A stretch of 26,574 nucleotides of DNA from an uncultured Candidatus Babeliaceae bacterium (GCA_964426225.1 CAYRPI010000002.1:1-26574); one strand, 5' to 3'. Counted from the stretch's first letter, positions 714-25,368 are shown. Numbers and translations: made by a program. The notes: generated by a model not told the origin, from the letters alone.

Positions 714-1577
714 TCAATCCGCAGAAACGATTTCAGCTGCACGAAGTTTAGCAGACCGAGACGAAGGGTTTTCCCACCGCTCTTTATCACCCGCAATCAC
801 AACCTTAGGAGTAAGTTCAATAAAAAGATCTTTATGATCGCGGATAAACCGCTTCACCAACCGATCTTCAAGCGAATGAAAACTAATACAGACCACACGG
901 CCACCCGGTGCCACAATCTGCTCAAGATGCTTTAAAAAGGTCTCAATATTTTCAAGCTCATGATTAACCTTAATCCGCAAAGCCTGAAATACCCGTGTTG
1001 CAGGATGAATCTTCCCACGAATAACGGGCATGATCGAGGTTATAAGATTTACCAGATCAAACGTCGTTCTTATCCGGCCCCGCTCTTCGCCATACAACCA
1101 GAAGATATCCGCAAGCTCACTTTCGGTTGCAGAATTAATAATATCCGCCGCCGTCACCGTGAAATGCGACGTAGACATGCGCATATCTAAAGGCAAATTC
1201 TGCGTAAAAGAAAATCCAGGGAGATTTGCAATCTGAAACTGCGACGTACCAAAATCAGCAAGAATTCCATCTACCGGTCCTTCATCTATTTTTTTTAATA
1301 AATGCGGAAGCTGAGCAAAATTGCCCCAGACAAATTCAAGCCGATCTCCAAACTCTTCCTTTAAGGCAGGACCATTACCTCCATTACTATCTATTGCATT
1401 TCGATCCCAGTCGCATGCAATAACACGACATGTAGGTTCATACTCCAAAATAGCACGCGTATGCCCGCCGCCCCCAAAAGTAGCGTCAACATACACGCCC
1501 GAAGGACGTGGCGCGAGATATTGAATTACCTCGCGCACTAAAACAGTTTTATGATAGTTTTTAAGTTCTGTGGTCAC
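714..1577 (-). CDS. rsmH: 16S rRNA m4C1402 methyltransferase RsmH (MraW), with an apparent internal in-frame deletion
   Basis: Motifs HKTVL, YVDATFGGGGH, ILADFGTS..Q, PLDMRM, YGEER, HPATRVFQALRI.VN.EL, ISFHSLEDR.VK, NPSSRSAKLR. GTG start overlaps the murF TGA (GTGA). Confidence 0.95.
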   Translation of the reverse strand: MTTELKNYHKTVLVREVIQYLAPRPSGVYVDATFGGGGHTRAILEYEPTCRVIACDWDRNAIDSNGGNGPALKEEFGDRLEFVWGNFAQLPHLLKKIDEGPVDGILADFGTSQFQIANLPGFSFTQNLPLDMRMSTSHFTVTAADIINSATESELADIFWLYGEERGRIRTTFDLVNLITSIMPVIRGKIHPATRVFQALRIKVNHELENIETFLKHLEQIVAPGGRVVCISFHSLEDRLVKRFIRDHKDLFIELTPKVVIAGDKERWENPSSRSAKLRAAEIVSAD

Positions 1578-2959
1578 GCAGTAAGCCTATCGACCAAATG
1601 CTGTAACCCAATGTCATGGGATGCTTTTACCAAAATAGCAACGTCATCAACAACCAGCGTCTCAATAGCCTGATGTGCCTCTTGCCATGAAGAAACTATC
1701 TGATAACGCAATCCACGAGGTAACGTCTTTGCAACCGCCTTAACCTGCTCACCCACAAAAATAACCTGCTGAATAGATGGCGTCTTACGTAGAGAACGTC
1801 CTAACTGGCGATGCCAGAAGGAACTATTTGCTCCCAGAGCCAACATATCACCCAACACCGCTATTTTTGGACCATGCACATCAAGTCGATCAAATGCAAA
1901 AAGCGCCTCTTTCATGCTTTCAGGATTAGCGTTATAAGAATCGTTTATCACAATTCCCTTGCCCGAACGTAGATCCAACGTTTGGAATCGACCTTGCACC
2001 GCAGCAACCGATTGAATACCTTCCACAATGCAAGCATGGGGAATATCCAAAAAGCAGGCTGTTGCAGCTGCCGCCAACGCATTGAGCAGACGCCCACGGT
2101 GTGGCATAGGCAACGTTATGGCATAACGTTCTTTATAAAGTTTTAAGATACCGGTCGTACGCATTCCATCAAGGGTAACACGCCGCGCCTGTACCTGGTT
2201 AGTAGTCTTAAAACCAAACTTAACCACCGGATGCGGGTAGGACATACCCGCTAAAATAGCCTGATCCCCATTGATAATACCAATGTTATCGGGCTTAAAA
2301 TATTTAAATATTTCGCGCTTTTCAACCGCAATATCGGTTAGCGCACCTAATCCATCCATATGCTGATGCGCAATGGTCGTAATAACCGCCAATGTTGGAC
2401 GTACCATATCGGCTAAACGCGCCATCTCGCCACGCAACGAAATACCCATTTCAACCACCGCACAATGATGCTCCGGTCTCATCTGAAGTAACGTCAACGC
2501 AACACCCAGATCGGTATTATAATTCCGTTCGGAAACTGCACATGTACGCCCACTAAGGTGTACCATTGCAGCCACCATCTCTTTAGTAGATGTCTTACCT
2601 ATAGAACCTGTAATACCAACTACAGGATAGGTAAACTGTGCTCGCCATGCAGCCGCAAGCCTAAAAAGAGCTTTTTCAGCCGATGGAACCAAAGCCACCG
2701 TTACCTTTTCCGCCAAAGCAGATATGTTCTTTAAACACTCTCTTTTTTCAGCATCGATGATTAACAACGTTGCTCCACGCGCCACTGCATCCGCTACAAA
2801 CAGATGACCATCGGTTACAGCTCCCTTAAGAGCCACAAAAGCCGTTCCAGGCCCTACCAAACGCGAATCAATAACGAAACGCTCTGCCGTAAATTCGCTC
2901 TTCCCGATCCATTCAGTTTCAGGAACCGCGAAAGTAAAAAACTTTTGATTTAGCCTCAT
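1574..2959 (-). CDS. murF: UDP-N-acetylmuramoyl-tripeptide--D-Ala-D-Ala ligase MurF
   Basis: DSR..PG..FVALKG...DGH, GITGSIGKTSTKEM (P-loop), VVEMG, INDSYNANPESM, VLGDML. Start placed at ATG 2959 (AGGA 6 nt upstream). The ORF track extends to a TTG at 3043 overlapping the ftsK stop. Confidence 0.92.
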   Translation of the reverse strand: MRLNQKFFTFAVPETEWIGKSEFTAERFVIDSRLVGPGTAFVALKGAVTDGHLFVADAVARGATLLIIDAEKRECLKNISALAEKVTVALVPSAEKALFRLAAAWRAQFTYPVVGITGSIGKTSTKEMVAAMVHLSGRTCAVSERNYNTDLGVALTLLQMRPEHHCAVVEMGISLRGEMARLADMVRPTLAVITTIAHQHMDGLGALTDIAVEKREIFKYFKPDNIGIINGDQAILAGMSYPHPVVKFGFKTTNQVQARRVTLDGMRTTGILKLYKERYAITLPMPHRGRLLNALAAAATACFLDIPHACIVEGIQSVAAVQGRFQTLDLRSGKGIVINDSYNANPESMKEALFAFDRLDVHGPKIAVLGDMLALGANSSFWHRQLGRSLRKTPSIQQVIFVGEQVKAVAKTLPRGLRYQIVSSWQEAHQAIETLVVDDVAILVKASHDIGLQHLVDRLTA

Positions 2960-3039
2960 ACGCATTCCTGCCAATGAAGTTGCACATACTTCTCTTTTGA
3001 ATATGTTGAAGATAAAACTGGCTGTATTTAGCACATTTG

Positions 3040-4902
3040 TCAAGAAAGAGATGCATCCCGTTGCACTTTCCTCATTTTTCCCGCACTAGCAGGGAGAACA
3101 ACACCACGCGCTTCGAGGGCATCTACAAGGCATGCCGCTCGGTTATAACCTATTCTAAAGCGCCTCTGTATAAGGGAAATTGAAACTTCATCAACAGACT
3201 GTACAAAAATAAGTACCTGAGCAAAGAGAGAATCCTCTACTCCCCCCGTTTCAGCGCGCCCCTGTTCACCGGCGCCATGCTCTGGAATCGTTTCATAGAC
3301 CACGGCCTGTTGAGCACGCAAGTGATCAGCCACCGCAGCAATCTCTTCATCGCGCACCAGTGCCCCATGCATACGCTCAATAGTTCCACGTGAATTTAAA
3401 AAGAGTAGATCACCTTTCCCTAAAAGCCGCTCTGCTCCAGGCGCGTCCAATATGGTGCGTGCATCAACTTTAGAGGTAACTTTAAAGGCAATCCGTGCCG
3501 GAAAATTGACCTTAATAAGCCCGGTCAACACATCAACCGACGGACGTTGCGTTGCAACAATTAGATGAATTCCAGCCGCCCGTGCCATTTGAGCAAGACG
3601 CGCAAGTGCAGGCTCTACATCTTTTCCCGCCACCATCATAATATCGGCAAGTTCATCCATCATAACCACAATATAGGGCAAGGAGCCCGGCCCCTCACGA
3701 AGTCTAAACTCTTGAATACTCCGTACCCCCGCCCGAGCCAGTTGGCTATACCGATCCTCCATGATCTGCGTTAGCCAGTGCAAAAGCGCGGGAACCCGTT
3801 GGACATTAGTCTCAACTGGAACTAATAAATGTGGAATATCCGCATACGATGCAAATTCAAGCCGCTTAGGATCCACCAACACCAACCGCACCTCATCAGG
3901 AGTCTTCTTATAAAACAGACTCATAAGCATTGCATGCAATGCAACCGATTTCCCCGACCCGGTGGAACCTGCAACCAAAAGATGTGGCATCTGCGCCAGA
4001 TCAATAACTACGTCACCACCTTGGGTATCACGCCCCAAAACAAGCGGCAAAGCAGCGGTACTTTCTCTAAACGATTTACTCATAACCAAGGTTGAAAAAC
4101 TAACCACTTCCCTCACTTGATTAGCAACTTCAAACCCAACCACCGACCGCCCCGGTATTGGAGCAATAATACGCAAACTCAATGCTTTAAGCGCTAACGA
4201 AAGATCATCCTCAAGCGCTACAATGCGGCTTAACTTAACATTATCCGCCGGCGCATACTCAAACAAGGTCACCACCGGCCCCACGGTTGTTGTAACCACA
4301 CGCCCACTAATACCAAAAAACCGTAATTTATCTTCCAATTGCCGCGCCCGCTCCTGTGCAGTACGAGCACGATCTTCAGCCCCCACTTCCCCCAATGGCT
4401 TTGCTAAAAAACTCTCCAGAGGCAAAACAAAGGGTGGTATCCCACTATCAAAATTTTCTAGCTCCAAACTATCTTTCATAGAGCTCTTTTCACCAAAATT
4501 TAATTCTGGAACGGCAGGAGAATGCACCCCAAAATCTGTGCCTGCACCGGTCATCTCTGCCCCCTCAAAGAGACTAGACGGTATAGAATTTAAACGACAC
4601 TGCAACTCTGCCCAAAACTGATCATCAAAAACCGCATCTTCCTGGCTGTCGGCGCCGCCCTGTGCAGAGACAAAAACTTCTGCCTCAACTCTTTGAGGAC
4701 CGTTTTCATCCCCATCCGAGTCAACTTCTGTATGAGATAAAGATAGGCCTCTAACCGCGTTCCGCATCTGAGTAATAGCCACAGACAAAGGGACCGTTAC
4801 ACGCCGCATCACGGTGGCAATTTGTTGCGCTAGCCACGAAGTTGCACCAGCAACTACCTCTACAGAGCTGCACCGCCCAAGAAAAACGGAAGACCAAAAC
4901 AA
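3040..4902 (-). CDS. ftsK: FtsK/SpoIIIE DNA translocase, linker + motor + gamma domain (C-terminal part of a frameshifted gene)
   Basis: GPVVTLFE, PIPGRSVVGFEVAN, PHLLVAGSTGSGKS (Walker A), DPKRLE, YIVVMMDELAD (Walker B), ARAAGIHLIVATQRPSVDV, GAERLLGKGDLL, SLIQRRFRIGYNRAA. No convincing SD of its own. Confidence 0.93.
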   Translation of the reverse strand: MFWSSVFLGRCSSVEVVAGATSWLAQQIATVMRRVTVPLSVAITQMRNAVRGLSLSHTEVDSDGDENGPQRVEAEVFVSAQGGADSQEDAVFDDQFWAELQCRLNSIPSSLFEGAEMTGAGTDFGVHSPAVPELNFGEKSSMKDSLELENFDSGIPPFVLPLESFLAKPLGEVGAEDRARTAQERARQLEDKLRFFGISGRVVTTTVGPVVTLFEYAPADNVKLSRIVALEDDLSLALKALSLRIIAPIPGRSVVGFEVANQVREVVSFSTLVMSKSFRESTAALPLVLGRDTQGGDVVIDLAQMPHLLVAGSTGSGKSVALHAMLMSLFYKKTPDEVRLVLVDPKRLEFASYADIPHLLVPVETNVQRVPALLHWLTQIMEDRYSQLARAGVRSIQEFRLREGPGSLPYIVVMMDELADIMMVAGKDVEPALARLAQMARAAGIHLIVATQRPSVDVLTGLIKVNFPARIAFKVTSKVDARTILDAPGAERLLGKGDLLFLNSRGTIERMHGALVRDEEIAAVADHLRAQQAVVYETIPEHGAGEQGRAETGGVEDSLFAQVLIFVQSVDEVSISLIQRRFRIGYNRAACLVDALEARGVVLPASAGKMRKVQRDASLS

Positions 4903-5380
4903 GCCCTACCGAGCTCAACATTAATGCGGTTGCATACGCAATCAATGCATCTGTATAGACTAAAAGTAGATGTGTCCCAAACGCACCTACCACCCCACCC
5001 AATAACCCCACGCTAACCACATCATACCCTATCTGACAGCAGAGCATACCCTGCGCCACAAGCAGCACTAAAAAACCCCCTATACGAGACCAATCGGGGG
5101 TCTGCTTATTCCACCGAAAAGTTTCTAACCCTAATAAAAAGAAAAATGGAATAAGCCATAACGCGGCACTGCCACATAAGAAGAAAAGGCCTGATGCAAG
5201 ATAGGCACCAATAACTCCACCCCCATTATGATGCACAATGGGATGAAGCGATGCTATAGAGAAAAAAAATGAAGGGTCCTGTCTATTAAAGGTAAAGAGA
5301 ATTAAGGCCAGAAATAACGACACTCCCATTAAAAAAAGACCCACAACATGGCTCTTTAATACTAAGGATCGATGCACCAT
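4751..5380 (-). CDS. ftsK: FtsK N-terminal membrane domain (4TM); separate reading frame overlapping the motor ORF
   Basis: Several hydrophobic helices with the FtsK N-domain pattern DPSF...N.GG.IGAYLA..LF...G and GG.VG. Strong G-rich SD. Lies directly upstream of the motor ORF, offset by +1. Confidence 0.8.
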   Translation of the reverse strand: MVHRSLVLKSHVVGLFLMGVSLFLALILFTFNRQDPSFFFSIASLHPIVHHNGGGVIGAYLASGLFFLCGSAALWLIPFFFLLGLETFRWNKQTPDWSRIGGFLVLLVAQGMLCCQIGYDVVSVGLLGGVVGAFGTHLLLVYTDALIAYATALMLSSVGLVLVFRFSWAVQLCRGSCWCNFVASATNCHRDAACNGPFVCGYYSDAERG

Positions 5381-5503
5381 TTTAAATCCTCCCCCTCCCT
5401 TTTTTCACCACTTCACTACAATCACATCCCATCCTACAAAGGGACGTCGCAAAAATTCAAGATTTGTACAAAATTTATTTACCAACCAAAAAAACAACCA
5501 CCC

Positions 5504-6250
5504 TCATCCACGAAATAACGCACCCATAATTGGAATAATCATGTAGAGGCCAAAATACCACAAGGTCTCTCGAACCATCATAGTCTCTACCATCCATAGG
5601 AGAAAATAAGCCCCAACCGAAGCTGCTAGAATACCCAAAAGCCCACCTCCTCCTAACACCGCTCCCAGCTCTCCATTATGCAACAACATCCCCAATCCCA
5701 AAAGCGCCGCACCTCCAAATAGCGGTGCCTGAAGCGCGCAAGAAAATCGAAAAGATCGAGATGCTGTCATTCCCAACCACCTCCCTACAACATACGTCAC
5801 TGCCAATCGAGAAACACCAGGCACCATCAACGCAACTCCCTGCGCTATGCCAACCCATACCCCATCACGCCACTTCAACGGTTTCTCATCGGTCTGTTTA
5901 GCCGGAAACAGTTTTAAAGAGAGCAACAAAAGAGCGGTGCAACCAAAACCAACTACAAAAGGAGCTCTCAGAGGCATTGCATGCGCGAGTAGAAAAAAGA
6001 GCCCCGTAATGGCCTCTGCCACCCCTATAATCCCTGCCCACCGCCACAGCATCAAACTGCTACTAGAGGGGGAAAATAACAAGGCGCTCCACTCGCGTGC
6101 AAAATAAATAAGAAGCATGACCGCGGTAGGACCTTGAGCAAAGAACTCAATCGACCAGGGTACTTCAAATCCGAGCAGATGAAGATGCCCAGAACTACTT
6201 ATCGGGAGTGATTCTAATAAAATTTGCATGAACAGATATAACTGAACCAT
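5504..6250 (-). CDS. uppP: Undecaprenyl-diphosphate phosphatase UppP (BacA family)
   Basis: QxxxESLPISSSGH matches BacA motif 1 (E..LPxSSxGH); AQGVAL.VPGVSR matches motif 2 (PGxSR); multi-pass hydrophobic; GAGG SD. Confidence 0.88.
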   Translation of the reverse strand: MVQLYLFMQILLESLPISSSGHLHLLGFEVPWSIEFFAQGPTAVMLLIYFAREWSALLFSPSSSSLMLWRWAGIIGVAEAITGLFFLLAHAMPLRAPFVVGFGCTALLLLSLKLFPAKQTDEKPLKWRDGVWVGIAQGVALMVPGVSRLAVTYVVGRWLGMTASRSFRFSCALQAPLFGGAALLGLGMLLHNGELGAVLGGGGLLGILAASVGAYFLLWMVETMMVRETLWYFGLYMIIPIMGALFRG

Positions 6251-6351: not shown

Positions 6352-6519
6352 ATACCTCAGACAAGAAAGTTTTATCTGTTCAACACACATAAAATATAGT
6401 CGGAAGGAGGATTTAACGGGCAAATAGAGTAGCATACACGATGCAGTGCATATCGGTTATGGTTTGGTTTATCCCCTAAAGATACATCAAGCTGGTTTTG
6501 GGTTCATCAGGAGTACTTT

Positions 6520-8538
6520 ATGAAGAACCTTTTTAGGTCGTTTTTATGCATAGCGCTGCTTTCAGCAGTCAGCGTTATGGAAGGATCTTGTTGCAGCACA
6601 GGAGGATGTTGTTCAACAACTTCCTGTTGTACATCAACAGGGTCAGGTGACTGCTGTTCAGCACCAAAAACCTTATGGTTCCCTCGGTCAGCTGGTGATA
6701 ACATGGTTATCGACGCTCACCGCCTAGGTTACAAATACAACGAAGAATGTTGCACCTACGGGGAATTTGACGTTTCTTACCGCTACCAACGTAGCTTCAA
6801 AGGCGAACGCATTGCCCAAAGTCTTTTTGGAACATGTGGCCTCAGCTTTGTAGGTAGCCAAGATTCAACACGTACCACAACACCTCCAACAGTTGCAGCT
6901 AATGCTCTGTTAGCAGACTATTTTGGACTTTCACAAGCACAGAGCTTACTTACAACGTCGTTCTGCCCTCGCGTTCAAAACCACTGCATAGACTTCAAAC
7001 TCTATGTTGGTGCAGATGAACTTCTAGAAGGCCTCTACATGCAGCTCAGCCTTCCATTGATCCACACTAAGTGGCAATTGAGCGGCGGGTGCTGTGGCTC
7101 TAACAACAATGGTTGCTGCAACTCCTGCTGTGGCGACAGCTGCTGTGGTGATAGCTGCTGTGGAACAACCACCAGCACAACAACCACTACCACAACCTGT
7201 GGAATTGGGGGCTGCCAAACAGGTACACTCAGCACCGTTGCATTCCCTGCAGGTTACATGAGCAACATTGCAGCTGGTACAGTACCGGTTCTTACAAGCC
7301 TTGCTGATGCACTCAATGGCAAAGCCTTTGGTGATTTCCAAGGTCGTACCTATGGCAAATTCTCAGGCTGCTGTGATGCAACTAAGCTTGCCGGCGTCTA
7401 CTTTGACTTAGGTTACAATTTCTGGGAATGCCCAGACTATCACCTCGGTGTTTATGTAAAAGTTGTTGCCCCAACCGGTACCAACATGAACTGCGACACA
7501 CACGTCAAAAATATCTTCTCCCCTGTAGTTGGTGATTATCACTGGCAATTGGGCGGTGGTATTTCCGGCGCTGCAGAACTTTACAACTGTGAAGATGATC
7601 ACAAGATAACTGCATACCTACAAGGTTATGTAGTTCACTTGTTTGAACGCGAACAAGTTCGTGCATTCGATCTTAACAACGGTGTAATGAGCCGTTACAT
7701 GCTCGCTAAAGAGTTTACCTCTGCTACAACCTTAACCTATGCCAACAAACTATGGTCTGTGATCGACTGGTCGACACGTAAAGCCAAAGTAAAAGTTGAT
7801 GTAAAAGGTGAAGGTACACTTGAGTTTGTTTACAGCAACAGCTGTGGCTTCTCAGCTGGCATAGGTTATGAAATCTATGGCCGTTCAAAGGAAAAGATCT
7901 GCAAGATCTGTAATCTTTGCAACAGCACCATGGCCTCCAAGACCCTCGGTCTTAAAGGTACAGCACCAGTTCAAGCCCCTGGATATTACGTAAGTAATGC
8001 TGTTGGTCCCGTCTGGACTGCACTCACACCAAGCCTCAGTGTCTCCGCAACCCAAAGCACTGCGACAGCATACAAAGCAGGTCTAACCCCAACTACAGCC
8101 GGTACAACTACAGGCAGTTTGGTTGATAGCCCTGTACTAGTAAGTGTTCCAAACCCAGTCGTAGGCGCCAACGTTGGTGAAGCTGCATACGTCAATCCAT
8201 TGACCATGCCTACAACTGTAAATACAACAAACATTGCCGCCAACGCCTTGATAGAATCGTCATCAACTCCGGTAACAGTCATTACTTCCCCTGCTGGTGT
8301 AGTAACAACTATTACAGCTGCTCCAACCCTCCTCACAGACGACAACATTAACAAATGTTCCGCTGCGTTGAACGGCTACATAACCAACAAAGTCTTTGGA
8401 CATGTTGATTATACATGGGACGATTGTTGCTGGAAGCCATCGGTTTACGCTGGCGCTGAAGGTGAATTTGCTAGCTGCTCCGACAAGAACGCAATGAATG
8501 CGTGGGGCATCTGGATTGGAGGCGCTGTAGCCTTCTAA
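6520..8538 (+). CDS. Cys-rich exported protein, putative outer-membrane beta-barrel, paralogue 1 (672 aa)
   Basis: AGGAG SD, signal peptide, about 39 Cys by manual count, alternating-hydrophobic strands (LGVYVKVV, FSAGIGYEIYG, KVFGHVDYTW), C-terminal WGIWIGGAVAF. Block-wise similarity to the two downstream ORFs. Confidence 0.85.
   Translation: MKNLFRSFLCIALLSAVSVMEGSCCSTGGCCSTTSCCTSTGSGDCCSAPKTLWFPRSAGDNMVIDAHRLGYKYNEECCTYGEFDVSYRYQRSFKGERIAQSLFGTCGLSFVGSQDSTRTTTPPTVAANALLADYFGLSQAQSLLTTSFCPRVQNHCIDFKLYVGADELLEGLYMQLSLPLIHTKWQLSGGCCGSNNNGCCNSCCGDSCCGDSCCGTTTSTTTTTTTCGIGGCQTGTLSTVAFPAGYMSNIAAGTVPVLTSLADALNGKAFGDFQGRTYGKFSGCCDATKLAGVYFDLGYNFWECPDYHLGVYVKVVAPTGTNMNCDTHVKNIFSPVVGDYHWQLGGGISGAAELYNCEDDHKITAYLQGYVVHLFEREQVRAFDLNNGVMSRYMLAKEFTSATTLTYANKLWSVIDWSTRKAKVKVDVKGEGTLEFVYSNSCGFSAGIGYEIYGRSKEKICKICNLCNSTMASKTLGLKGTAPVQAPGYYVSNAVGPVWTALTPSLSVSATQSTATAYKAGLTPTTAGTTTGSLVDSPVLVSVPNPVVGANVGEAAYVNPLTMPTTVNTTNIAANALIESSSTPVTVITSPAGVVTTITAAPTLLTDDNINKCSAALNGYITNKVFGHVDYTWDDCCWKPSVYAGAEGEFASCSDKNAMNAWGIWIGGAVAF
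7126..7197 (+). repeat. In-frame 15-bp tandem repeat (CCGDS x2 + CCG) followed by a poly-Thr tract
   Basis: TGCTGTGGCGACAGC TGCTGTGGTGATAGC TGCTGTGGA, then ACA/ACC/ACT codons encoding TTTSTTTTTTT. Confidence 0.9.
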
Positions 8539-8580
8539 GGTTAAGCCTTTCACACCTAAAGACAGACAAAAACAAGCACA

Positions 8581-8616
8581 TAAGGCTCGGGATTTACGTC
8601 CCGGGCCTTATTTTTT
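8581..8616 (+). terminator. Intrinsic terminator after paralogue 1
   Basis: 12-bp stem TAAGGCTCGGGA / TCCCGGGCCTTA (one G-U), 6-nt loop, followed by TTTTTT. Confidence 0.85.
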
Positions 8617-8656
8617 GTCCAAAACCAAAATAGGGACGTAAAAATCCTCAAAAAAT

Positions 8657-8741
8657 AGTAAGCTCTTGTCAACAGTGCATAACAGGTTGTTGCTTGGCCA
8701 ACCATAACATCAGCCAAGTAGGTTCATCAGGAGTACTATTT
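8657..8741 (+). promoter_or_regulatory. Conserved leader upstream of paralogue 2 (candidate structured cis-element)
   Basis: Near-identical to 10811-10894; ends in GGTTCATCAGGAGTACT, which is also present before paralogue 1. Confidence 0.6.
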
Positions 8742-10784
8742 ATGAAGAGCCCCTTGAAATTTTTATGGAAAATCACACCGCGCTACACAGCGCTAGTACG
8801 CACCACCGTGCAGTGTGTCACCGTACTAACCGTTGTCAGCACACTCAACTCACAAGGCTGTTGCGACAGCTGCTGTAATTCAACATCAAGCACAAATTCT
8901 ACAGAAATGTGCAGCCCAAAAACCCTCTGGTTTAGCCGTTCTGCAGGCGACAATCTTGTACTTGATGCCCACCGCTTTGGCTACCGATATTCCGAAAATT
9001 GCTGCTCCTACGGCGCCTTTGGCATATCCTACCGCTACCAACAAACTACAGAAGGGAAACGCATAGCAGAAGGGCTATTTGGAGGATGTGGACTCAGTTT
9101 TGCCGGCAGTTTGGCCACCAGCCGTACCAACAGCACCGTTGCCACTATCTCCCTATTAGCCGATTATTTTGGATTGTCCCAAAAACAGGACAATCTCTCC
9201 ATCTCATTCTGCCCACGTATCAAAAATCATTGCCTAGACTTTCGCCTCTATGCAGGCCTTGAAGACGTTTTAGAAGGTCTTTATATGCAATTTAGCCTAC
9301 CGCTAATTAGCACCCACTGGGACCTAGCAGGCGGAAAATGCTGTTGCCCCTGCAACGCAAGTAACAACTGCTGCTCTACAGAGTGCTGTGCAGGCAGTGC
9401 CGCTATAACCACCGCTGCAGCCCCTAATACCGGCACCTCAACCTGTGGACTAAGCGGCTGCCAAATTGGCACGCTCAATGGCACACCTTTCCCTGCAGGG
9501 TACATGAGCAGCATAGCAAACGGCACCATAGCCCCTGTCTCCACTCTTTTAGATGCTCTTAATGGCAAAGGCTTTGGGGATTTTCAAGGCCGAACTTATG
9601 GCAAATTTTCAGGCACCACAGATGACACAAAATTCGCCGGCATCTACTTTGATCTAGGCTATAATTTCATAGAAGACCCCGACTACAACCTTGGAGTTTA
9701 TCTAAAAGTCATCGCTCCTACCGGGACTAATATGGGAAAAGATACCCATGTAAAAGAAATTTTCTATCCCGTAATCGGTGATTACCAGTGGCAACTGGGG
9801 GGAGGAATTTCAGGACACTGGGAGCTCTACAACTGCGAAAATAACCACACCGTTACCGCCTACCTACAAGGCTATGTTACCCATATGTTTGCAAGCGACC
9901 AGGTACGTGCATTCGATCTTACCAATGGAACCATGAGCCGTTACATGCTTATGAAAGAGTTTGTCTCAAACACCGATCTATCTTACAACAATAAATTATG
10001 GTCTGTAATCGACTGGTCCACACGTAAAGCCACTATAAACGTTGCATACAAGGGTGAAGGATTAATTGAATTTGTGTACCATCACCACTGCGGCTTCTCT
10101 GCCGGTGTTGGGTATGAAATTTATGGCCGTGCAAAAGAGACGATCTGCAAAGTTTTCGCTCCTTACAACAGCGCCTTTACCAGTAAAACTCTCGGACTTA
10201 AAGGTAATGCTCCGGTCTATGCAGATGGATATGTTGTTGACGCTACAGGTGGTGACCACTGGGTCATATTCCCACCCTCAACTGAAGTTCCCTACAACGT
10301 CTCTGCAACACAAAGCTCTGCCACCGCCTATAAATATGGAACCGTTGATAGCGCCATCACCGTCCAATTGCCCATCCCTTTCCCAACCCCAGCTGTAGTA
10401 GGTAATGCTGCTTATGTAAACTCCCTAACGTTCCCCGGGCTTACCAATCCTTCAGTTTTTGCAACGGATACAACAAACATCCAGTCAAACGCTCTACAGG
10501 AATCTGGAACAGGCCCTATCACAGCCATTGATGCTACAACAGGCGATATAACCGGTCTAACCCGCAACCCCACTATCCTCACAGACGACAATATAGACCG
10601 CTGCTCGGCGCTATTAAATGGATACATAACCAATAAAGTCTTTGGCCACATAGATTATATCTGGGACGATTGCTGCTGGGAACCTTCGGTCTATGCTGGA
10701 GCAGAAGGTGAATTTGGAAGCTGCTGCGACAAAAATGCTATGAATGCCTGGGGCATCTGGATTGGGGGATCGGTAGCCTTCTAA
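8742..10784 (+). CDS. Cys-rich exported protein, putative outer-membrane beta-barrel, paralogue 2 (680 aa)
   Basis: Start reassigned to ATG 8742 (AGGAG SD at 8729-8733, followed by a signal-like N-terminus). About 29 Cys, shared blocks (PKTLWF.RSAGDN, LLADYFGL, WQLGGGISG, NKLWSVIDWSTR), ends WGIWIGGSVAF. Confidence 0.85.
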   Translation: MKSPLKFLWKITPRYTALVRTTVQCVTVLTVVSTLNSQGCCDSCCNSTSSTNSTEMCSPKTLWFSRSAGDNLVLDAHRFGYRYSENCCSYGAFGISYRYQQTTEGKRIAEGLFGGCGLSFAGSLATSRTNSTVATISLLADYFGLSQKQDNLSISFCPRIKNHCLDFRLYAGLEDVLEGLYMQFSLPLISTHWDLAGGKCCCPCNASNNCCSTECCAGSAAITTAAAPNTGTSTCGLSGCQIGTLNGTPFPAGYMSSIANGTIAPVSTLLDALNGKGFGDFQGRTYGKFSGTTDDTKFAGIYFDLGYNFIEDPDYNLGVYLKVIAPTGTNMGKDTHVKEIFYPVIGDYQWQLGGGISGHWELYNCENNHTVTAYLQGYVTHMFASDQVRAFDLTNGTMSRYMLMKEFVSNTDLSYNNKLWSVIDWSTRKATINVAYKGEGLIEFVYHHHCGFSAGVGYEIYGRAKETICKVFAPYNSAFTSKTLGLKGNAPVYADGYVVDATGGDHWVIFPPSTEVPYNVSATQSSATAYKYGTVDSAITVQLPIPFPTPAVVGNAAYVNSLTFPGLTNPSVFATDTTNIQSNALQESGTGPITAIDATTGDITGLTRNPTILTDDNIDRCSALLNGYITNKVFGHIDYIWDDCCWEPSVYAGAEGEFGSCCDKNAMNAWGIWIGGSVAF

Positions 10785-10810
10785 AATTTTGCGTCTCGGG
10801 CCCTATTTGT

Positions 10811-10894
10811 AGTAAGCTCTTGAGCGAATGCATAACGGGTTGTCGCTTGGCCAACCACAACATCAGTCAAGTAGGTTCATCAGGAGTACTAAAT
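10811..10894 (+). promoter_or_regulatory. Conserved leader upstream of paralogue 3 (candidate structured cis-element)
   Basis: Only 4 substitutions versus the paralogue 2 leader between TGCATAAC and GAGTACTA. Confidence 0.6.
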
Positions 10895-12898
10895 ATGAAG
10901 AACCAATTTAAATTTTTATGGAGCACCACCGTGCTAAGTAGAGTGCATAGTATTGCATTACTAGCCCTAGTAAGCGCAAACAGTTTACACGGATGTTGCG
11001 GATGCGAATGCTCTGCAATAGGATTAGGGGGAACAGAAAACGATAGAAACGAACCCAAAACTCTCTGGTTTGGCCGTTCAGCTGGAGATAACCTGGTCAT
11101 TGATGGGCACCGCTTTGGATACAAACATGTCGAAGACTGTTGCACCTATGGCGATTTTAGCATCTCCTACCGTTATCAAAAAAACTTCCACGGAAAACGA
11201 CTAGCGGAAAGTCTCTTTGGAACCAGCACCCTAAATTTTGCCGGCAGCAGAGCCCCTAGTAGGATAAACACACCTGCAACCGTTGCCGACAATACACTTC
11301 TTGCAGACTATTTTGGTCTTGCTCAAGACACCGACAATCTCGCCGTCTCCTTTAATCCCTGCGTACAAAATCACACCATAGATTTTAAACTTTACATTGG
11401 GTTAAATGAACTGTGTGATGGACTTTATCTGCAATTTAATACCCCCTTAGTTCACACCAAGTGGAGTCTAAATAAATGCAACTCCTGTGACAGCTGCTGC
11501 AACTCATGCACCTCAAGTGGCTGCTATGGGACAGGACCCCTTCCCAGAGTTGTCTCAACAACCTGCGGTCTTAGCGGAGAAATAACGGGAACTCTTTCAC
11601 AAACGCTCTTCCCAGATGGCTACATGAGCTCCTACTACAAAATCACAACGCCTCCTTCAACAACGGCAAATCCTATTACCCCCCTCGCTTCTCTTGCAAG
11701 TGCTCTAAACGGCGCCCCATTCGGCGACTATCAAGGGAGGTCCTATGGCCGCTTTTCAGGGTACTGTAACGACACTAAATTTGCAGGATTCTACTGCGAT
11801 TTAGGGTACAATTTTCTCGAATGCCCAGACTACCACCTAGGCCTCTACCTAAAAATTGTCGCTCCTACCGGCACCGATATGAACAGCGAAAATCACGTAG
11901 CCAACCTCTTCTATCCCGTTATTGGTGACTTTCACTGGCAATTGGGAGGCGGTATTTCTGGCCATTGGGAGATCTATAACTGTGACGATGATCACGTCCT
12001 AACCGCTTATCTACAAGCCTATGCCACACACCTTTTTGGACGCGAACAAGTTCGAACCTTTGATTTAACTAATGGTCCTATGAGCCGCTACATGCTTATG
12101 AAAGAGTTTACCACTACAAATACCTATGCCAACAAACTCTGGTCTGTAATTGATTGGTCTACCCGCAGAGCAGAAGTAAAAGTGGATGCGAAAGGCGAAG
12201 CATTAATTGAATTTATATACAACAATAACTGTGGCTTCTCAGCTGGTATTGGATATGAACTGTACGGTCGCTCAAAAGAAAAGGTCTGCTGCCCTTATAA
12301 CACCCCACTCAACAGCTCCCTTGAAAACAAAATCGTTGGTCTCAAAGGCTGCGCGCCTGTTGATGCGCCGCTTTATGGATTAGCAGCTAATGTGGTCCAA
12401 GCTGGGGTTATAAACTCGTACTACAACGCTGCTTATCCTGCCCCAGCAACCCCCCATGGGCTAGGTTCAACTCAAAGTACGGCTACAGCATACACATGTG
12501 GAACCGTTGACAATAAAATTGCTCTTGTAGACGCCGTAACCAACAACGTTGTCTATTCAAACCCTCTAATCTATACCAATCCGGTTGGACTAACCGGCAC
12601 GACCGTTGCCGTAGAAGACTCGGCAACCGGTAATTTAGCAATCGCACCTGCAGGCAATGTAACCGGCCTTACCGCCAATCCAACAGTACTTACAGGTACC
12701 AGCCTTAATAGATGCTCTGCTGCCCTAAAAGGCTATATCACCAACAAAGTCTTTGGCCACATAGACTATACCTGGGACGATTGCCACAATTGGAAGCCTG
12801 TCATTTATGTGGGAGCAGAAGGAGAATTTGCAAGCCGCTGTGACAAAAATGCTATGAATGCCTGGGGCTTCTGGCTTGGAGGAAACATAGCATTCTAA
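10895..12898 (+). CDS. Cys-rich exported protein, putative outer-membrane beta-barrel, paralogue 3 (667 aa)
   Basis: Start reassigned to ATG 10895 (AGGAG SD). About 27 Cys, same conserved blocks, ends WGFWLGGNIAF. Confidence 0.85.
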   Translation: MKNQFKFLWSTTVLSRVHSIALLALVSANSLHGCCGCECSAIGLGGTENDRNEPKTLWFGRSAGDNLVIDGHRFGYKHVEDCCTYGDFSISYRYQKNFHGKRLAESLFGTSTLNFAGSRAPSRINTPATVADNTLLADYFGLAQDTDNLAVSFNPCVQNHTIDFKLYIGLNELCDGLYLQFNTPLVHTKWSLNKCNSCDSCCNSCTSSGCYGTGPLPRVVSTTCGLSGEITGTLSQTLFPDGYMSSYYKITTPPSTTANPITPLASLASALNGAPFGDYQGRSYGRFSGYCNDTKFAGFYCDLGYNFLECPDYHLGLYLKIVAPTGTDMNSENHVANLFYPVIGDFHWQLGGGISGHWEIYNCDDDHVLTAYLQAYATHLFGREQVRTFDLTNGPMSRYMLMKEFTTTNTYANKLWSVIDWSTRRAEVKVDAKGEALIEFIYNNNCGFSAGIGYELYGRSKEKVCCPYNTPLNSSLENKIVGLKGCAPVDAPLYGLAANVVQAGVINSYYNAAYPAPATPHGLGSTQSTATAYTCGTVDNKIALVDAVTNNVVYSNPLIYTNPVGLTGTTVAVEDSATGNLAIAPAGNVTGLTANPTVLTGTSLNRCSAALKGYITNKVFGHIDYTWDDCHNWKPVIYVGAEGEFASRCDKNAMNAWGFWLGGNIAF

Positions 12899-12917: not shown

Positions 12918-12975
12918 AAACAAGAGAGTATGTTCGTATAAAAAAGTAATTTTGTGCGAACATACCCTCTTGTTT
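12918..12975. terminator. Long hairpin, probable bidirectional terminator between paralogue 3 and nth
   Basis: 26-position stem AAACAAGAGAGTATGTTCGTATAAAA / TTTTGTGCGAACATACCCTCTTGTTT with one mismatch and two G-U pairs, 6-nt loop, AT-rich flanks, between convergent genes. Confidence 0.75.
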
Positions 12976-15437: not shown

Positions 15438-17207
15438 CTACCAGCCGCCTCCACCTCCGCCGCCACGCCCCCCACCAGAAAAGCCTCCTCCACCTCCGCC
15501 AGACGATGTTTTATACGTTGTCAAAGGAATATTAAGGTCCGATGCAAAACTTCCAAGATCGGTAGCAAACGAATCCAACATAGCAAGTGTAAACAGCCTG
15601 CCTCCCCCATACCACAGGGGAGAATACGCATGATCTTCTGCTTCTAACTGCTTAAAGACAGATGCAAATTGCTGCGTCCACTGCCGCTCTGCATTTAAAG
15701 CAATAGCATAGGGCAAATATTTTTCATAAAGCTCCGGCGTCCTTGTAGGCGGAGTCCCCACCATATCAAGTCGCTCCGTCTCTGTCGTTTTTAAGAAAAG
15801 GGTAAACCCCTTTATCTCATCACGAATCCGACACCCTTGAGGAGTATAAGCACGAATGAGCAAAGCTCCTAAACCAACCAATCCAAAAAGAAACAGAGGA
15901 ATAATAGGATTAATCCACCCATCTAAAATCCAGGCTACAATCGTTATAAATAAACTAAAACACCCGGCCCAGATAGAATACTTTGCATTAAGAAGAAAAA
16001 AGTCCTTAAAAGCTTTTCCATGCTGTCCACGAATAAACTGAGCTGCATCCTGAACAGTTGCACGCCCCTCTTGCGAAAGCTTTACAACCTCAGATTGCCT
16101 AAACAATCTCTCCAAAATGCCGGCCTGCAGAGAATTCGGTGTCTTGATCTCCCCTCCATCTGCTCCCTCAAGCTGAGATTCAGGGTTTAACCCAGAATTA
16201 AATCCTGCCCGAACCAACCGATACGTTCCCTTACCAAACCAAGCCGTATCCTGCTCAATTTTTAGAAAACCATGAACGGCCATATCTACCAACTCCGCTG
16301 CCAGCTGCCGTGAATCATACCCCATATGAAGAATATAACGGCACCCCGACGGAGAAATATCTTTTGGAGGATAAAATAAGGGGATTATAGGACCCACATT
16401 TTGTGACTTTTTAACTCGACGCCAGACTATTCCATAAAAAATCAAAAGCGCCAAAAAGCTGAAGAAGAAAAGTATCAACCCCAGATTATCACGAACAAAC
16501 CATAAAAATTCTTGTCCCGTTGTGGGAGGCATAATAAGGCCCTTAGGCCAAGTCAAAGAGACTGAAAACCCTTCTCTAGGGCCAAGAGGCTGTATGACCT
16601 CACCATGAATTATACGGTCCCCTTCAATCCAGAATTTAGCCCCTCTTCCCGACTCCCCATAACGCCCTGTATAACCCCATAATGAAACCTTAGACGCAAG
16701 GATCTCGGGTGGAAGCTCAACGGTAACTCGTGCCTTTAAAATAGGAATTCTCCATAAATTACCCGTAACATTCCAGAAAAGCTCATCATACTTTTGAGAA
16801 AAAAAGAGCAGTTGTCGATTAGTACGATAATGAATCTTATAATGATAGATTCCAGGCGACAAAAAGAGCTCCGCCCTACCAATGCGGACGCGCTTTCCAT
16901 TCTGGACAGACTCTATATGAAACGGCTCTTGATGACCATCCCTTAACACAGATATATCTGAAAGTGCTACTGAATAATTTGTACCTGCAGGCCCTGCATA
17001 AACCGTAGGAATATCACGAAGCATGCCACGTCGTTGGACCAAAGCATTAAAGCCATAGTCCATATCTTCTGTAACATCAAGCGTCCCGTCGCTCTCTATT
17101 TTAATGGTTGCATCGAAAAGGGCCAAAAATTCGGGGAGATCCGCCCTCAAAAAAATTCCTGCACATAAAACGGAAACGCTTAATGCGAAACTAACACGAC
17201 GCACCAT
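15438..17207 (-). CDS. DUF2207-family membrane protein (LemA-associated)
   Basis: Signal peptide, DGTLDVTE, RG..RDIP, DELFWNVTG..W, central TM helices, EKYLPYAIAL, Gly-rich tail SSGGGGGGFSGGGRGGGGGGGW; directly downstream of lemA; AGGAGG SD. Confidence 0.85.
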   Translation of the reverse strand: MVRRVSFALSVSVLCAGIFLRADLPEFLALFDATIKIESDGTLDVTEDMDYGFNALVQRRGMLRDIPTVYAGPAGTNYSVALSDISVLRDGHQEPFHIESVQNGKRVRIGRAELFLSPGIYHYKIHYRTNRQLLFFSQKYDELFWNVTGNLWRIPILKARVTVELPPEILASKVSLWGYTGRYGESGRGAKFWIEGDRIIHGEVIQPLGPREGFSVSLTWPKGLIMPPTTGQEFLWFVRDNLGLILFFFSFLALLIFYGIVWRRVKKSQNVGPIIPLFYPPKDISPSGCRYILHMGYDSRQLAAELVDMAVHGFLKIEQDTAWFGKGTYRLVRAGFNSGLNPESQLEGADGGEIKTPNSLQAGILERLFRQSEVVKLSQEGRATVQDAAQFIRGQHGKAFKDFFLLNAKYSIWAGCFSLFITIVAWILDGWINPIIPLFLFGLVGLGALLIRAYTPQGCRIRDEIKGFTLFLKTTETERLDMVGTPPTRTPELYEKYLPYAIALNAERQWTQQFASVFKQLEAEDHAYSPLWYGGGRLFTLAMLDSFATDLGSFASDLNIPLTTYKTSSGGGGGGFSGGGRGGGGGGGW

Positions 17208-17238
17208 GAGCCCCTCCTAACGCCTTCTGCGCCCTTAT

Positions 17239-17805
17239 TTAAAATTGAATGTGTGGAACATTACGCTCTTCGGCACTATCCAATTCAAAATAAGGTGCCA
17301 CTACAAAACCGGTGACACCTGCAATAATACGTGAGGGGAACATCTGAACCCCGATATTATAATTTCTAGCCGCACCATTGTAGTACCGACGAGATAACTG
17401 AAGCTCATCTTCCAAGGATGCTAAATCTTTTTGAAGAGACATAAAATTTTGATTCGCTTTCAAATCAGGATAATTTTCAGCCACTGCAAAAAGAGTTTTT
17501 AAAGCAGACGTCAACTGACCTTCGGCCACCGCCTTTTGTTCAATGCCCACTGCACTCATCGAGACAGAACGCATGCGTGCTATATTCTCAAGAACTTCTT
17601 TTTCATGAATACCGTACTGTTTCACCACTGCGACTAAATTAGGAATTAAGTCATAACGACGCTTAAGTTGCACGCTAATGCCACTCCACCCTTCATCCAC
17701 CATAGCTTTTAAACGAACAAGGCCGTTATAGCCCTGCATAAACCAGAAACCAACCACTAAAATTGCCGCCGCAATTCCTATTAAAACAATACCCATAGAA
17801 GACAT
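17239..17805 (-). CDS. lemA: LemA family protein
   Basis: N-terminal TM anchor, YNGLVRL, W..I.VQLKRRYDLIPNLV..VK.Y..HEKEVL, AVAENYPDLKANQNF, RRYYN...RNYN, FPS.IIAG. Confidence 0.95.
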   Translation of the reverse strand: MSSMGIVLIGIAAAILVVGFWFMQGYNGLVRLKAMVDEGWSGISVQLKRRYDLIPNLVAVVKQYGIHEKEVLENIARMRSVSMSAVGIEQKAVAEGQLTSALKTLFAVAENYPDLKANQNFMSLQKDLASLEDELQLSRRYYNGAARNYNIGVQMFPSRIIAGVTGFVVAPYFELDSAEERNVPHIQF

Positions 17806-18056: not shown

Positions 18057-19445
18057 ATGACGGATAAAAAACTTTATATTCTGGATACCAATGTATTAAT
18101 CCATGATTCCAAAGCACTTTTTTCATTCAAAGGTGCCCATATAGGAATCCCGATTACCGTTCTTCAAGAATTAGATAGATTCAAATCAGAAACCACCTCA
18201 CGCGGACGCAATGCTCGCGAGGTCATTCGCACCCTCGATAAATTACGCGAACTGGGATCCCTGGCTCAAGGCGTAACACTTGAGGACAAAACAGTCGTTC
18301 AGATTCTTCTCCTCCCACCTGTCATCTCTATTCCATCATTAGGCGCAAAATCAGATGACGATACCATTCTTGCAACCATCCTCTCTATGCAAGCAAAAGG
18401 CTTTGAGATCCATTTCATAACAAAAGATCTTAATATGCGCGTCAAAGCAGACGCCTTAGGCATAAAAACAGAAGACTACCACAAAGAACATATTGCAGAA
18501 GATGATTTCTATAAAGGCTGGCTCTCATTCGCTGTTCCTGCTGGAGATTTACAAAAAGATCTACCCCTTATCCTCGCTCAAATAGCAAAAGAGCAAGACC
18601 TGCACACCAACGAATATATCGAACTTTTTAGTGAACGCAACCCAGAAAACTTCCGACTCTTTCGCTATAACGGCAACCAGATATTCAAACCCGTAAAACA
18701 TCCGCACATAATCTGGCCCATCCTTGCACGCAACCCTCAACAGCTCATGGCCCTTGATCTTCTTTTTGATGACAATATACAGTTAGTAACCCTTTTAGGC
18801 CCTGCAGGAACAGGAAAAACCTTCTTAGTACTCGTTGCAGCACTACATAAACTACTAGTGGAAAGAGAATATAAAAAAGTTCTTATCGCACGCCCTGTTG
18901 AACCACTAGGACGTGATATTGGATACCTACCAGGAGACATACAAGAAAAACTCTACAGCTGGATGCAACCCGTACGGGACAACTGGGATTTCATCTCTCA
19001 CAAAGCTCAATCAGGATATGAACGAGGACTCCACGAAGATCAACACGGAATACAAAAAGGTGCTCGAAAATCCCGAAAGAAAAGCCCTGCCGATTCCATC
19101 TGGAGGATCCCCTCAATAGACGATCTCTCTCACGCCGACAAACTTAGCCTTGAGGCCATTACCTATATGCGTGGACGCTCTATCCCTGACCAGTATATTC
19201 TCATTGACGAGGTTCAAAACCTAACGCCGCATGAAGTCAAAACACTTATCACACGAGTAGGAGAAGGAAGTAAAATTATCCTTGCCGGAGATCCCTATCA
19301 AATCGACTCCCCTTACTTAGACTTTGCAAGTAACGGTCTAGTCGTAACAAGTGAACGATTTAAAGGGCAATCTATCTTTGGATCCGTCTTTCTAGAAAAG
19401 AGTGAGCGGAGCGCATTAAGCTCTCTGGCAGCCCAACTATTATAA
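18057..19445 (+). CDS. PIN-domain PhoH-family ATPase (PhoH2/YlaK type)
   Basis: N-terminal PIN motifs YILDTNVLIHD, DD.IL, FITKDLNMRVKADALG; C-terminal PhoH motifs GPAGTGKT, IGYLPGD..EK, YMRGRSI, DEVQNLT, ITRVGEGSKIILAGDPYQID; AGGAG SD. Confidence 0.9.
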   Translation: MTDKKLYILDTNVLIHDSKALFSFKGAHIGIPITVLQELDRFKSETTSRGRNAREVIRTLDKLRELGSLAQGVTLEDKTVVQILLLPPVISIPSLGAKSDDDTILATILSMQAKGFEIHFITKDLNMRVKADALGIKTEDYHKEHIAEDDFYKGWLSFAVPAGDLQKDLPLILAQIAKEQDLHTNEYIELFSERNPENFRLFRYNGNQIFKPVKHPHIIWPILARNPQQLMALDLLFDDNIQLVTLLGPAGTGKTFLVLVAALHKLLVEREYKKVLIARPVEPLGRDIGYLPGDIQEKLYSWMQPVRDNWDFISHKAQSGYERGLHEDQHGIQKGARKSRKKSPADSIWRIPSIDDLSHADKLSLEAITYMRGRSIPDQYILIDEVQNLTPHEVKTLITRVGEGSKIILAGDPYQIDSPYLDFASNGLVVTSERFKGQSIFGSVFLEKSERSALSSLAAQLL

Positions 19446-19486
19446 AACAAAATAAATCCTAAAAACGGAAAATCAAAACGTGAGCA

Positions 19487-24792: not shown

Positions 24793-25368
24793 CTACCCTT
24801 CAACTATCTTATTCAAAAGAGCTCTAACATTCTTCAAGAATGTAATCAGGCTTTCACGATCCCTAAACGCATTCTTCACATTACTATCGAATGTTCTCTG
24901 CGCTTCGGGCACCATCTCTTTATAGCGAGCTAAAAACTCTCCAACAAGCTCACGGTCATTCCCGAATTTATTAAGCATTTCAATAAAGTGAGAGACTCGC
25001 TTATTCATAGCCACCACCTGACTTGGGGATGGGAACGGCTTGACCTCAACGTCAACCTCTACCATTTCAGGCAAAGGCTTAGTCTCAAACCGAGCCATTT
25101 TTTCTGCTTCCCGAGCCATTTGTTCTTTCATAGCCATTTGTTCTTCCATAGCTACTTCAGCTTCTCTTTGAGACGGCCCCACAACTACAGGCTTATTGAA
25201 TAAATCTCGAACTGGCGCAACAGAGACAGGTGCCACCAAACCCGCACCTCGTTTTTCTACTGAGCCCGGCTTTACAGCCATCACGGCGGCTTGTTCATTC
25301 ACTATACGTGCATGAGCAAGGCCTGCCACACTAAGCACAGCAAGCGCTACAAAAAGCTTACTATTCAT
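24793..25368 (-). CDS. Hypothetical exported protein with a short Met/Glu/Ala-rich internal repeat
   Basis: AAGGAG SD, signal peptide MNSKLFVALAVLSVAGLAHA, own terminator; no recognisable family. Confidence 0.8.
   Translation of the reverse strand: MNSKLFVALAVLSVAGLAHARIVNEQAAVMAVKPGSVEKRGAGLVAPVSVAPVRDLFNKPVVVGPSQREAEVAMEEQMAMKEQMAREAEKMARFETKPLPEMVEVDVEVKPFPSPSQVVAMNKRVSHFIEMLNKFGNDRELVGEFLARYKEMVPEAQRTFDSNVKNAFRDRESLITFLKNVRALLNKIVEG
25091..25152 (-). repeat. In-frame 18-21-bp tandem repeats (AMEEQM-AMKEQM-AREAEKM-AR)
   Basis: GCTATGGAAGAACAAATG GCTATGAAAGAACAAATG GCTCGGGAAGCAGAAAAAATG GCTCG on the minus strand. Confidence 0.8.

Follow-up and report, generated by a model that had tools for sequence, protein, structure and literature searches.

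Three tandem genes of an uncultured Babeliaceae bacterium encode predicted cysteine-rich outer-membrane beta-barrel proteins of a family found in Dependentiae

Three consecutive genes at positions 6520-12898 of a 26,574-nt stretch of DNA from an uncultured Candidatus Babeliaceae bacterium (GCA_964426225.1 CAYRPI010000002.1:1-26574; hereafter, the window) encode tandem paralogues of a large protein family that very probably consists of outer-membrane beta-barrels inserted by the beta-barrel assembly machinery (BAM). Judging by the sequences of all named sources, the family appears to be restricted to the Dependentiae (TM6, also Babelota), and it most likely provides the principal outer-membrane protein of this phylum. 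Dependentiae live as obligate parasites of protists; they are widespread, but very few have been cultured. As a large, phylum-restricted, multi-copy, site-conserved, and confidently predicted barrel, the family is an obvious candidate for the main surface protein. An earlier note on this DNA, made from the sequence alone, had suggested that the Cys-rich regions of these proteins might cross-link into a stage-specific coat. For an outer-membrane barrel that carries Cys-rich low-complexity modules, we regard such a coat as an attractive hypothesis that is plausible by analogy with chlamydiae. The overall reading that we favor, with moderate confidence, is that the array consists of tandem copies from a barrel family specific to Dependentiae, with a proposed role in a disulfide-linked lattice.

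Open reading frame (ORF) calling yielded three consecutive ORFs on the + strand (6520-8538, 8694-10784, and 10820-12898). The mechanical ORFs of copies 2 and 3 open upstream at TTG codons (8694 and 10820, respectively); the likely true starts are ATG 8742 and ATG 10895, since both follow an AGGAG located 7-9 nt upstream, the same as that preceding ATG 6520 of copy 1. With these starts, the genes and their C-terminal signals are as follows.

6520..8538, + strand: paralogue 1, a predicted Cys-rich outer-membrane beta-barrel protein of 672 aa with 39 Cys (from ORF calling, AlphaFold2, and Foldseek)
8742..10784, + strand: paralogue 2, 680 aa with 29 Cys, starting at the ATG after the shared AGGAG
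10895..12898, + strand: paralogue 3, 667 aa with 27 Cys, starting at the ATG after the shared AGGAG
8506..8535, + strand: C-terminal beta-signal of paralogue 1 (…WGIWIGGAVAF), a final strand in which hydrophobic and small residues alternate
10752-10781, + strand: equivalent beta-signal site of paralogue 2
12866-12895, + strand: equivalent beta-signal site of paralogue 3

The Cys counts are exactly those that the earlier note had given as approximate values for three tandem paralogues, and every conserved block it had listed is present and invariant in a three-way alignment. In this alignment, the paralogues share 58-64% protein identity, with copies 2 and 3 being 64% and 60% identical to copy 1, respectively. 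Between copies, the DNA identity is 60-83%, which indicates old duplicates and rules out an assembly artefact. By inspection, all three N-termini resemble signal peptides of signal peptidase I, with a basic n-region followed by a hydrophobic core of 12-15 residues, while all three C-termini read GG(A/S/N)(V/I)AF, a canonical GxxVxF beta-signal of the type that had been claimed for them. This feature extends across the family, as the 52 members inspected all end in F, W, or Y, some with one extra residue (D, N, or E). A lipoprotein reading of the N-termini was considered and rejected: the first Cys lies 1-4 residues past AxA-type cleavage sites and a lipobox is conserved nowhere.

The proposal of a beta-barrel fold was supported by two independent AlphaFold2 models with mean predicted local distance difference test (pLDDT) scores of 87 and 86, both of which match FapF, COG4313, FadL, CymA, and autotransporter barrels. 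The first is a model of paralogue 1, for which a 52-sequence alignment was used. It is a beta-barrel with a predicted template modeling (pTM) score of 0.86, and only residues 21-42, 191-228, and 525-530 are disordered. The second is a model of a member with just 4 Cys (P0068, ~31% identical; pLDDT 85.7, pTM 0.86), which has the same strand order and the same top matches as paralogue 1, indicating that the fold is independent of the cysteines. In Foldseek searches against the PDB, the 12-stranded FapF ranked first for both models (E 7e-8 and 2e-8), with template modeling (TM) scores normalized to the target of 0.57-0.67 overall and 0.61-0.67 for the paralogue 1 model. Next came the COG4313 channel 4rl8 (TM 0.64), followed by a FadL homologue, CymA, and the EspP, AIDA, and EstA barrels. 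Every match with a probability near 1, for both models, was an outer-membrane barrel.

Topology was read from secondary structure and loop length. The strands are amphipathic, with alternating hydrophobic and polar faces, and long strands are joined on one side by turns of 3-7 residues (165-171, 304-306, 358-360, 441-443, and 633-638) and on the other by loops of 9-153 residues (93-143, 187-283, 318-342, 383-418, 467-619, and 652-660). This pattern is parity-consistent with 12 strands, or with 14 if the poorly conserved 485-507 hairpin also spans the membrane. Over half of the chain (~370 residues) is predicted to form large and partly conserved external loops, or a cap. The strongest family-wide conservation is not confined to the strands but includes many positions in loops L1 (F103, G104, G112, S113, R118, A132, D133, and F135-L137), L3 (P318-G320, F333, P335, G338, and H341), and L4 (F383, D384, S391-Y393, and L395, also R381), as well as in a segment preceding the first strand.

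6661..6756, + strand: conserved N-terminal segment of paralogue 1 (PKTLWFPRSAGDN...), residues 48-79, 66% invariant among the paralogues; across the family, R56 and S57 show at least 85% conservation

[quoted passage not shown] Other regions are hypervariable, namely the insert at the start of L2 (L2a), the 485-507 hairpin, most of L5, and L6. Among the three paralogues, just 20% of L2a, 0-29% of the 485-507 hairpin, and 25% of L5b are invariant, compared with 45-85% of the barrel strands. The conservation of L1, L3, and L4 against the variability of L2a, L5, and L6 suggests that the cap combines a conserved, functional part, which probably lines or covers the lumen, with others that can vary freely.

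Neither Pfam nor NCBIfam (E<=1 for both) yielded anything relevant for the three proteins, and a Pfam scan of 52 diverse members returned zero models of barrel families and zero propeller matches, even at E<=10. Likewise, the family profile had a single, chance-level match among PDB sequences (E 1.2). Looking up the exact sequence of paralogue 1 in a contig index gave no record. A word-indexed search found 478 relatives, and all of the named ones are Candidatus Dependentiae/TM6, as the earlier note had guessed. When 1.84 billion cluster representatives were searched exhaustively with the family profile, 2,895 50%-identity clusters were recovered at E<=1e-3, of which 1,817 at E<=1e-30. A locus search in species-representative genomes, performed with a 16-sequence family alignment, recovered 39 loci; the named ones are all TM6, Dependentiae, or Babeliaceae, except for two labeled Pseudomonadota. 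It should be noted that these two (L031 and L042) are metagenome-assembled contigs labeled 'uncultured Pseudomonadota' that carry 3-4 tandem family copies within an rsmH-murF-ftsK neighborhood at 32-33% GC. Their gene order is that of Dependentiae, so the taxonomic label is probably wrong. Several genomes also encode a distant paralogue of ~530 aa (E 1e-45 to 1e-55 with the family hidden Markov model) divergently beside the arrays, always on the - strand (L017 1003-2601, L020 1954-3504, L021 1792-3456, and L037 2036-3613), which may be a second subfamily.

While the databases contain no named family that matches, and the earlier note had recognized none, the family is not wholly new to the literature. 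Pagnier et al. [quoted passage not shown] The mention comprises one sentence, which describes secreted, LDL-receptor-like, host-interaction proteins, and comes without a membrane-barrel assignment, phyletic survey, or functional data (PMC4378268). One Babela member aligned to our family profile with an hhalign probability of 99.8% (E 3.5e-28 over 341 columns; BLASTP E 6e-9) and is likewise built from a signal peptide, then a Cys-rich tail, then a beta-rich body, and shares the xxPR motif. From these sequence comparisons, the expanded family of B. massiliensis is the same protein family, which had thus been noticed before, but never characterized. Since the confident barrel models contradict the published propeller label, the annotation is corrected here and, even without any cross-linking, a barrel family not yet in Pfam or NCBIfam is defined.

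In most loci, the family is arranged in tandem arrays of 2-6 copies within ±6 kb. Compared with the three copies in the window, its closest relative (71% identity) carries four consecutive copies at the syntenic site, with at least one further copy close by. The array site is conserved across the phylum, with rsmH-murF-ftsK-uppP on one side and transcribed away from the array; these neighbors recur in 20-25 of 35 Dependentiae loci. The other side often has fabD-gltX plus an unknown protein of 276 aa, instead of which this window has nth-thrS. The upstream half of the arrangement is carried by the window at 714-6250. This gene order holds even between genomes (L004-L042) whose barrel proteins are only 27-30% identical.

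Cys makes up 5.8, 4.3, and 4.0% of paralogues 1, 2, and 3, which contain 12, 9, and 4 Cys-Cys doublets, respectively, whereas the intact neighboring genes of the window have 0-1.8%, except for nth at 2.8%. Family-wide, however, the count ranges from 2 to 58 among 249 near-full-length members (median 23, mean 3.6%), and 22 of these have fewer than 10 Cys. Thus, the earlier note was correct about Cys-rich domains in these three proteins, but a high Cys content does not define the family. Cys is concentrated in two hot spots, the stretch before the PRSxG motif, including the tail after the signal peptide (9.7% Cys), and L2a (10.8%). Both are low-complexity, Ser/Thr/Gly-rich, predicted to be disordered, and highly variable, being 12-20% invariant even among the three paralogues. 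In paralogue 1, they correspond to the following.

6586..6660, + strand: N-terminal Cys-rich low-complexity tail, residues 23-47, 8 Cys; pLDDT <50 at residues 21-42
7078..7215, + strand: Cys/Thr-rich insert in the predicted external loop L2, residues 187-232, 12 Cys; pLDDT <50 at residues 191-228

The N-terminal tail would be periplasmic. A member that is 43% identical to paralogue 1 and has 8 Cys (P0023) is without both stretches, which are optional low-complexity modules on a common scaffold. Vicinal Cys-Cys doublets in disordered segments suit networks better than defined intramolecular pairs, as a general matter of protein chemistry. Within the L2 insert of paralogue 1, a 15-nt tandem repeat (2.6 copies, 7125-7163) encodes CCGDS, and an adjoining 12/15-nt repeat (within 7125-7197) encodes a Thr run; slippage in the 7125-7197 repeats could alter the length of the Cys-rich loop. 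Outside of the modules, semi-conserved single Cys residues occur at positions 78, 284, 304, 442, 461, 467, and 636 in 50-65% of 52 members; for 78, 304, 442, and 636 the range is 50-62%. The model would place Cys 78, 304, 357, 442, and 636 on short periplasmic turns or the rim, and 284/285, 461, and 467 externally. Across the 249 members, Cys 304, 357, and 442 co-occur (phi 0.39-0.58; 0.58 for 304-357 and 0.44 for 357-442), as do the external Cys 285, 461, and 467 (phi 0.41 for 285-461), although these values come from a gappy alignment and are inflated by shared ancestry, such that they serve as hints only.

These features could be combined in the following mechanism. A signal peptide would export the protein and BAM would insert the barrel via its C-terminal GxxVxF signal; BamA, BamD, Skp, and SurA are all listed for Babela and TM6SC1 in a supplementary COG table (PMC4378268). 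The mature protein would be a small barrel of about 12 strands, most similar in fold to FapF and the COG4313 channel, with residues 48-79 in or under its lumen and a folded external cap in which L1, L3, and L4 are conserved phylum-wide while L2a and L5 are hypervariable. Two optional Cys-rich modules would be added to this scaffold, the periplasmic tail after the signal peptide and the external L2 insert. In an oxidized extracellular stage, their thiols would form intermolecular disulfides between neighboring barrels, presumably abundant, as well as with other envelope proteins. The resulting protein lattice would lend rigidity to an outer membrane that has no lipopolysaccharide (LPS) in Babeliales and no detected classical tether, and the lattice would loosen once reduced within the host. 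A second role, as a restricted channel, is suggested by the conserved residues of the lumen and cap.

Several published observations bear upon this proposal. LPS genes are absent in Babeliales (PMC4776705), and Chromulinavorax (C. destructans) is similarly without LPS genes, its free particle having a condensed nucleoid and a dense periplasm (PMC6561590). In addition, a survey of 10 Dependentiae genomes for the four known outer-membrane tethers detected none of them (preprint 10.1101/2021.05.31.446380). Together, the absence of LPS genes, the absence of tethers, and the condensed free particle make a structural role for disulfides plausible. As a function considered on its own, we view the disulfide lattice as a tentative proposal, possible but somewhat short of probable. 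A more elaborate version, in which a redox-switchable disulfide lattice substitutes for both LPS and the four tethers as an independent invention resembling the chlamydial outer membrane complex, with paralogues tuned to protist hosts, strikes us as rather unlikely.

A number of points weigh against a disulfide lattice. As the Cys-rich modules are absent from many members (22/249 with fewer than 10 Cys, P0023 and P0068 among them), cross-linking cannot be the core function of the family. The Babela COG table contains DsbD only, without DsbA/DsbG (COG1651) or DsbB (COG1495), so a dedicated oxidase is not evident, at least in Babela (PMC4378268). The same table includes one OmpA-like protein (COG2885), which sits uneasily with the statement that tethers are lacking (PMC4378268). 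Furthermore, peptidoglycan synthesis genes are present (murF and uppP in the window), and the chlamydial rationale of disulfides replacing a sacculus therefore applies less well. Lastly, the membrane side assigned to each Cys, the plug, and the strand count (12 or 14) are predictions from secondary structure and loop length, and the Cys co-occurrence statistics are confounded by phylogeny.

The comparison with chlamydiae raised by the earlier note holds at the level of predicted architecture. In a 2026 cryo-electron microscopy structure, MOMP is a 10-stranded, OmpT-like barrel with ~50% of its chain in an external cap, and is not a porin (PMC13254160). An N-terminal stopper occupies its lumen, which is reported to be fully occluded in the elementary body, and a Cys-rich periplasmic region makes intermolecular disulfides (PMC13254160). 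The Dependentiae proteins would likewise combine a small barrel with a folded external cap holding about half of the chain, and two further features demonstrated for MOMP may be shared by them, an N-terminal segment entering the lumen and a concentration of Cys in the periplasm. Both groups are also obligate intracellular parasites of eukaryotes with a condensed extracellular form (PMC13254160; PMC6561590). However, there is no sequence homology, with Pfam PF01308 (Chlam_OMP) matching 0 of 52 members at E<=10. The Dependentiae family has ~12 predicted strands and is FapF-like, and the three proteins (~670 aa) are larger than the 42-kDa MOMP, with many more Cys (27-39) and with low-complexity CC-rich modules that MOMP does not have. 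Also unlike Chlamydia, no OmcA/OmcB partner was identified and peptidoglycan genes are present in the window. The architecture therefore appears to be a close analogue of MOMP without homology. If the Cys modules do cross-link, this would be a second, independent instance of disulfides stabilizing the envelope of an intracellular bacterium whose extracellular form is condensed. Work on Babela, Vermiphilus, and Chromulinavorax by envelope proteomics, cryo-tomography, and host-range studies would then also have a concrete target.

Among the alternatives, the one that survives best is a dedicated channel, either for the uptake of hydrophobic or host-derived molecules (as for COG4313/FadL) or for the export of unfolded polypeptides (as for FapF), in which Cys would serve only as intramolecular braces of the loops and each paralogue would have its own substrate. 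Plugged channels (FapF, COG4313, FadL, and CymA) are indeed the best structural matches. For the 12-stranded FapF/COG4313 type, the resemblance consists of the top match for both models (E about 1e-8) and N-terminal elements before the first strand, although TM values of 0.57-0.67 are normalized to the target and the choice between 12 and 14 strands comes from secondary structure. The conservation of R56, S57, D133, P318-G320, R381, D384, and S391-Y393 would suit a lumen or constriction site, the co-occurring external Cys 285, 461, and 467 would suit braces, and Dependentiae, being unable to synthesize lipids, amino acids, and nucleotides, depend on importing them (PMC4776705). On the other hand, the family has no sequence relationship to the FapF, COG4313, FadL, or CymA families. 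It matches neither Pfam PF13557 (Phenol_MetA_deg) nor a PDB sequence, is Cys-rich, and is more than twice as long as FapF/COG4313 due to ~370 residues of external loops. Neither fap-like nor catabolic partner genes occur nearby: the fapA-F operon and aromatic-catabolism contexts are absent, and the neighbors are the housekeeping genes rsmH, murF, ftsK, uppP, nth, and thrS. FadL/TodX and CymA, which are 14-stranded with an N-terminal hatch, share the idea of an N-terminal plug and gave significant Foldseek matches (E 1e-6 to 1e-4), but they superpose poorly (TM 0.28-0.43 per target, with FadL at 0.28-0.33) and Pfam PF03349 (Toluene_X) is unmatched. The 16-stranded trimeric general porins of the OmpF/PorB type are more distant still, with PorB and OprO as weak matches only (TM 0.23-0.24) and the Porin Pfam unmatched. 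Moreover, Cys-Cys doublets in disordered low-complexity stretches are ill-suited to defined intramolecular pairs. We therefore consider a dedicated channel of this kind unlikely as an explanation in its own right, while recognizing that a channel is compatible with the disulfide lattice, rather than exclusive of it.

The paralogues could instead form a set of surface adhesins or invasins, whose caps bind protist receptors and whose copies represent alternative specificities or antigenic variants. Divergence among the paralogues is concentrated in predicted external regions (L2a, 485-507, and L5b), and copy number differs between close relatives, the window having 3 and the 71%-identical genome at least 5. 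Pagnier et al. likewise proposed that these proteins interact with the host (PMC4378268). Yet a search for switching devices, which covered repeats, inversions, and gene conversion, uncovered neither a phase-variation nor a recombination device. The promoters have no homopolymer or short-repeat tracts, the only repeats are the coding 15-nt and 12-nt ones, and no credible invertible segment or recent gene conversion was found. At 60-83% DNA identity the copies are old, and much of the cap is conserved phylum-wide, unlike typical variable antigens. Thus, the suggestion of surface variants made in the earlier note is weak, and the adhesin explanation as a whole is improbable. Even less probable is that the Cys-rich tails act like metallothioneins, buffering Cu/Zn in the protist phagosome. 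CC, CxC, and CxxC clusters do occur in a disordered Ser/Thr/Gly-rich context, and with DsbA/DsbB unlisted for Babela the thiols might stay reduced (PMC4378268), but the idea is purely an analogy, metal-handling genes are not adjacent, and the tails, which many members do not have, differ greatly in length. Finally, the secreted, soluble beta-propeller or LDL-receptor-like protein of the B. massiliensis gene table can be rejected, given two confident models that match membrane barrels only, a C-terminal beta-signal, strands that alternate lipid-facing and polar residues, and Pfam propeller matches in 0 of 52 members.

Several further features were identified around the three genes.

8580..8611, + strand: hairpin resembling an intrinsic terminator, 3' of paralogue 1, with a 14-bp stem followed by a T run; strong
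12928..12965, + strand: terminator-like hairpin 3' of paralogue 3, with a 16-bp stem and a weak T tail
8676..8741, + strand: conserved 5' leader of paralogue 2, which carries the AGGAG Shine-Dalgarno sequence and is the twin of 10829-10894
10829..10894, + strand: conserved 5' leader of paralogue 3, from its alignment with the paralogue 2 leader
5504..6250, - strand: uppP/bacA (Pfam BacA), divergent from the array

The two leaders are part of a 101-nt repeat (8676-8776 versus 10829-10929) with 87% identity, which is above the coding DNA identity of the copies. An AGGAG and a small hairpin (CTTGGC...GCCAAG) are common to the leaders of copies 2 and 3, that of copy 1 (6440-6519), and that of the first copy of the closest relative. 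An Rfam scan of the whole window gave zero matches, the folding energy of the conserved leaders was no better than that of shuffled sequences (z -1.2 to +0.5), and no sigma-70-like promoter was found upstream of the array genes. A 15-nt inverted repeat (6229-6243/6368-6382), 93% complementary and with 124 nt between its arms, extends over the start of uppP and the divergent intergenic region 5' of copy 1; it may have a regulatory function or be due to chance.

With regard to the neighboring genes, ftsK is split over two frames at 3040-5380 (- strand), with the switch at about 4779-4844. The closest relative has a single ORF encoding a 786-aa FtsK, of which residues 1-184 match frame -3 and residues 215-786 match frame -1, and the split in the window reflects either a frameshift or an error of assembly. 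The same relative (L001) also encodes two paralogous secreted proteins of ~240 aa (18742-20335) with 6-7 Cys and ending in ACCQN or ACCQD, which sit between its fourth and next family copy and are absent from the window. At 24793-25368 (- strand), the window encodes a 191-aa protein that has a signal-peptide-like N-terminus, is free of Cys, and matches nothing in Pfam. At 15438-17805 (- strand) lies a conserved gene pair of unknown function, consisting of a LemA gene followed by a gene for a DUF2207 membrane protein with a long Gly-rich tail (SSGGGGGGFSGGGRGGGGGGGW).

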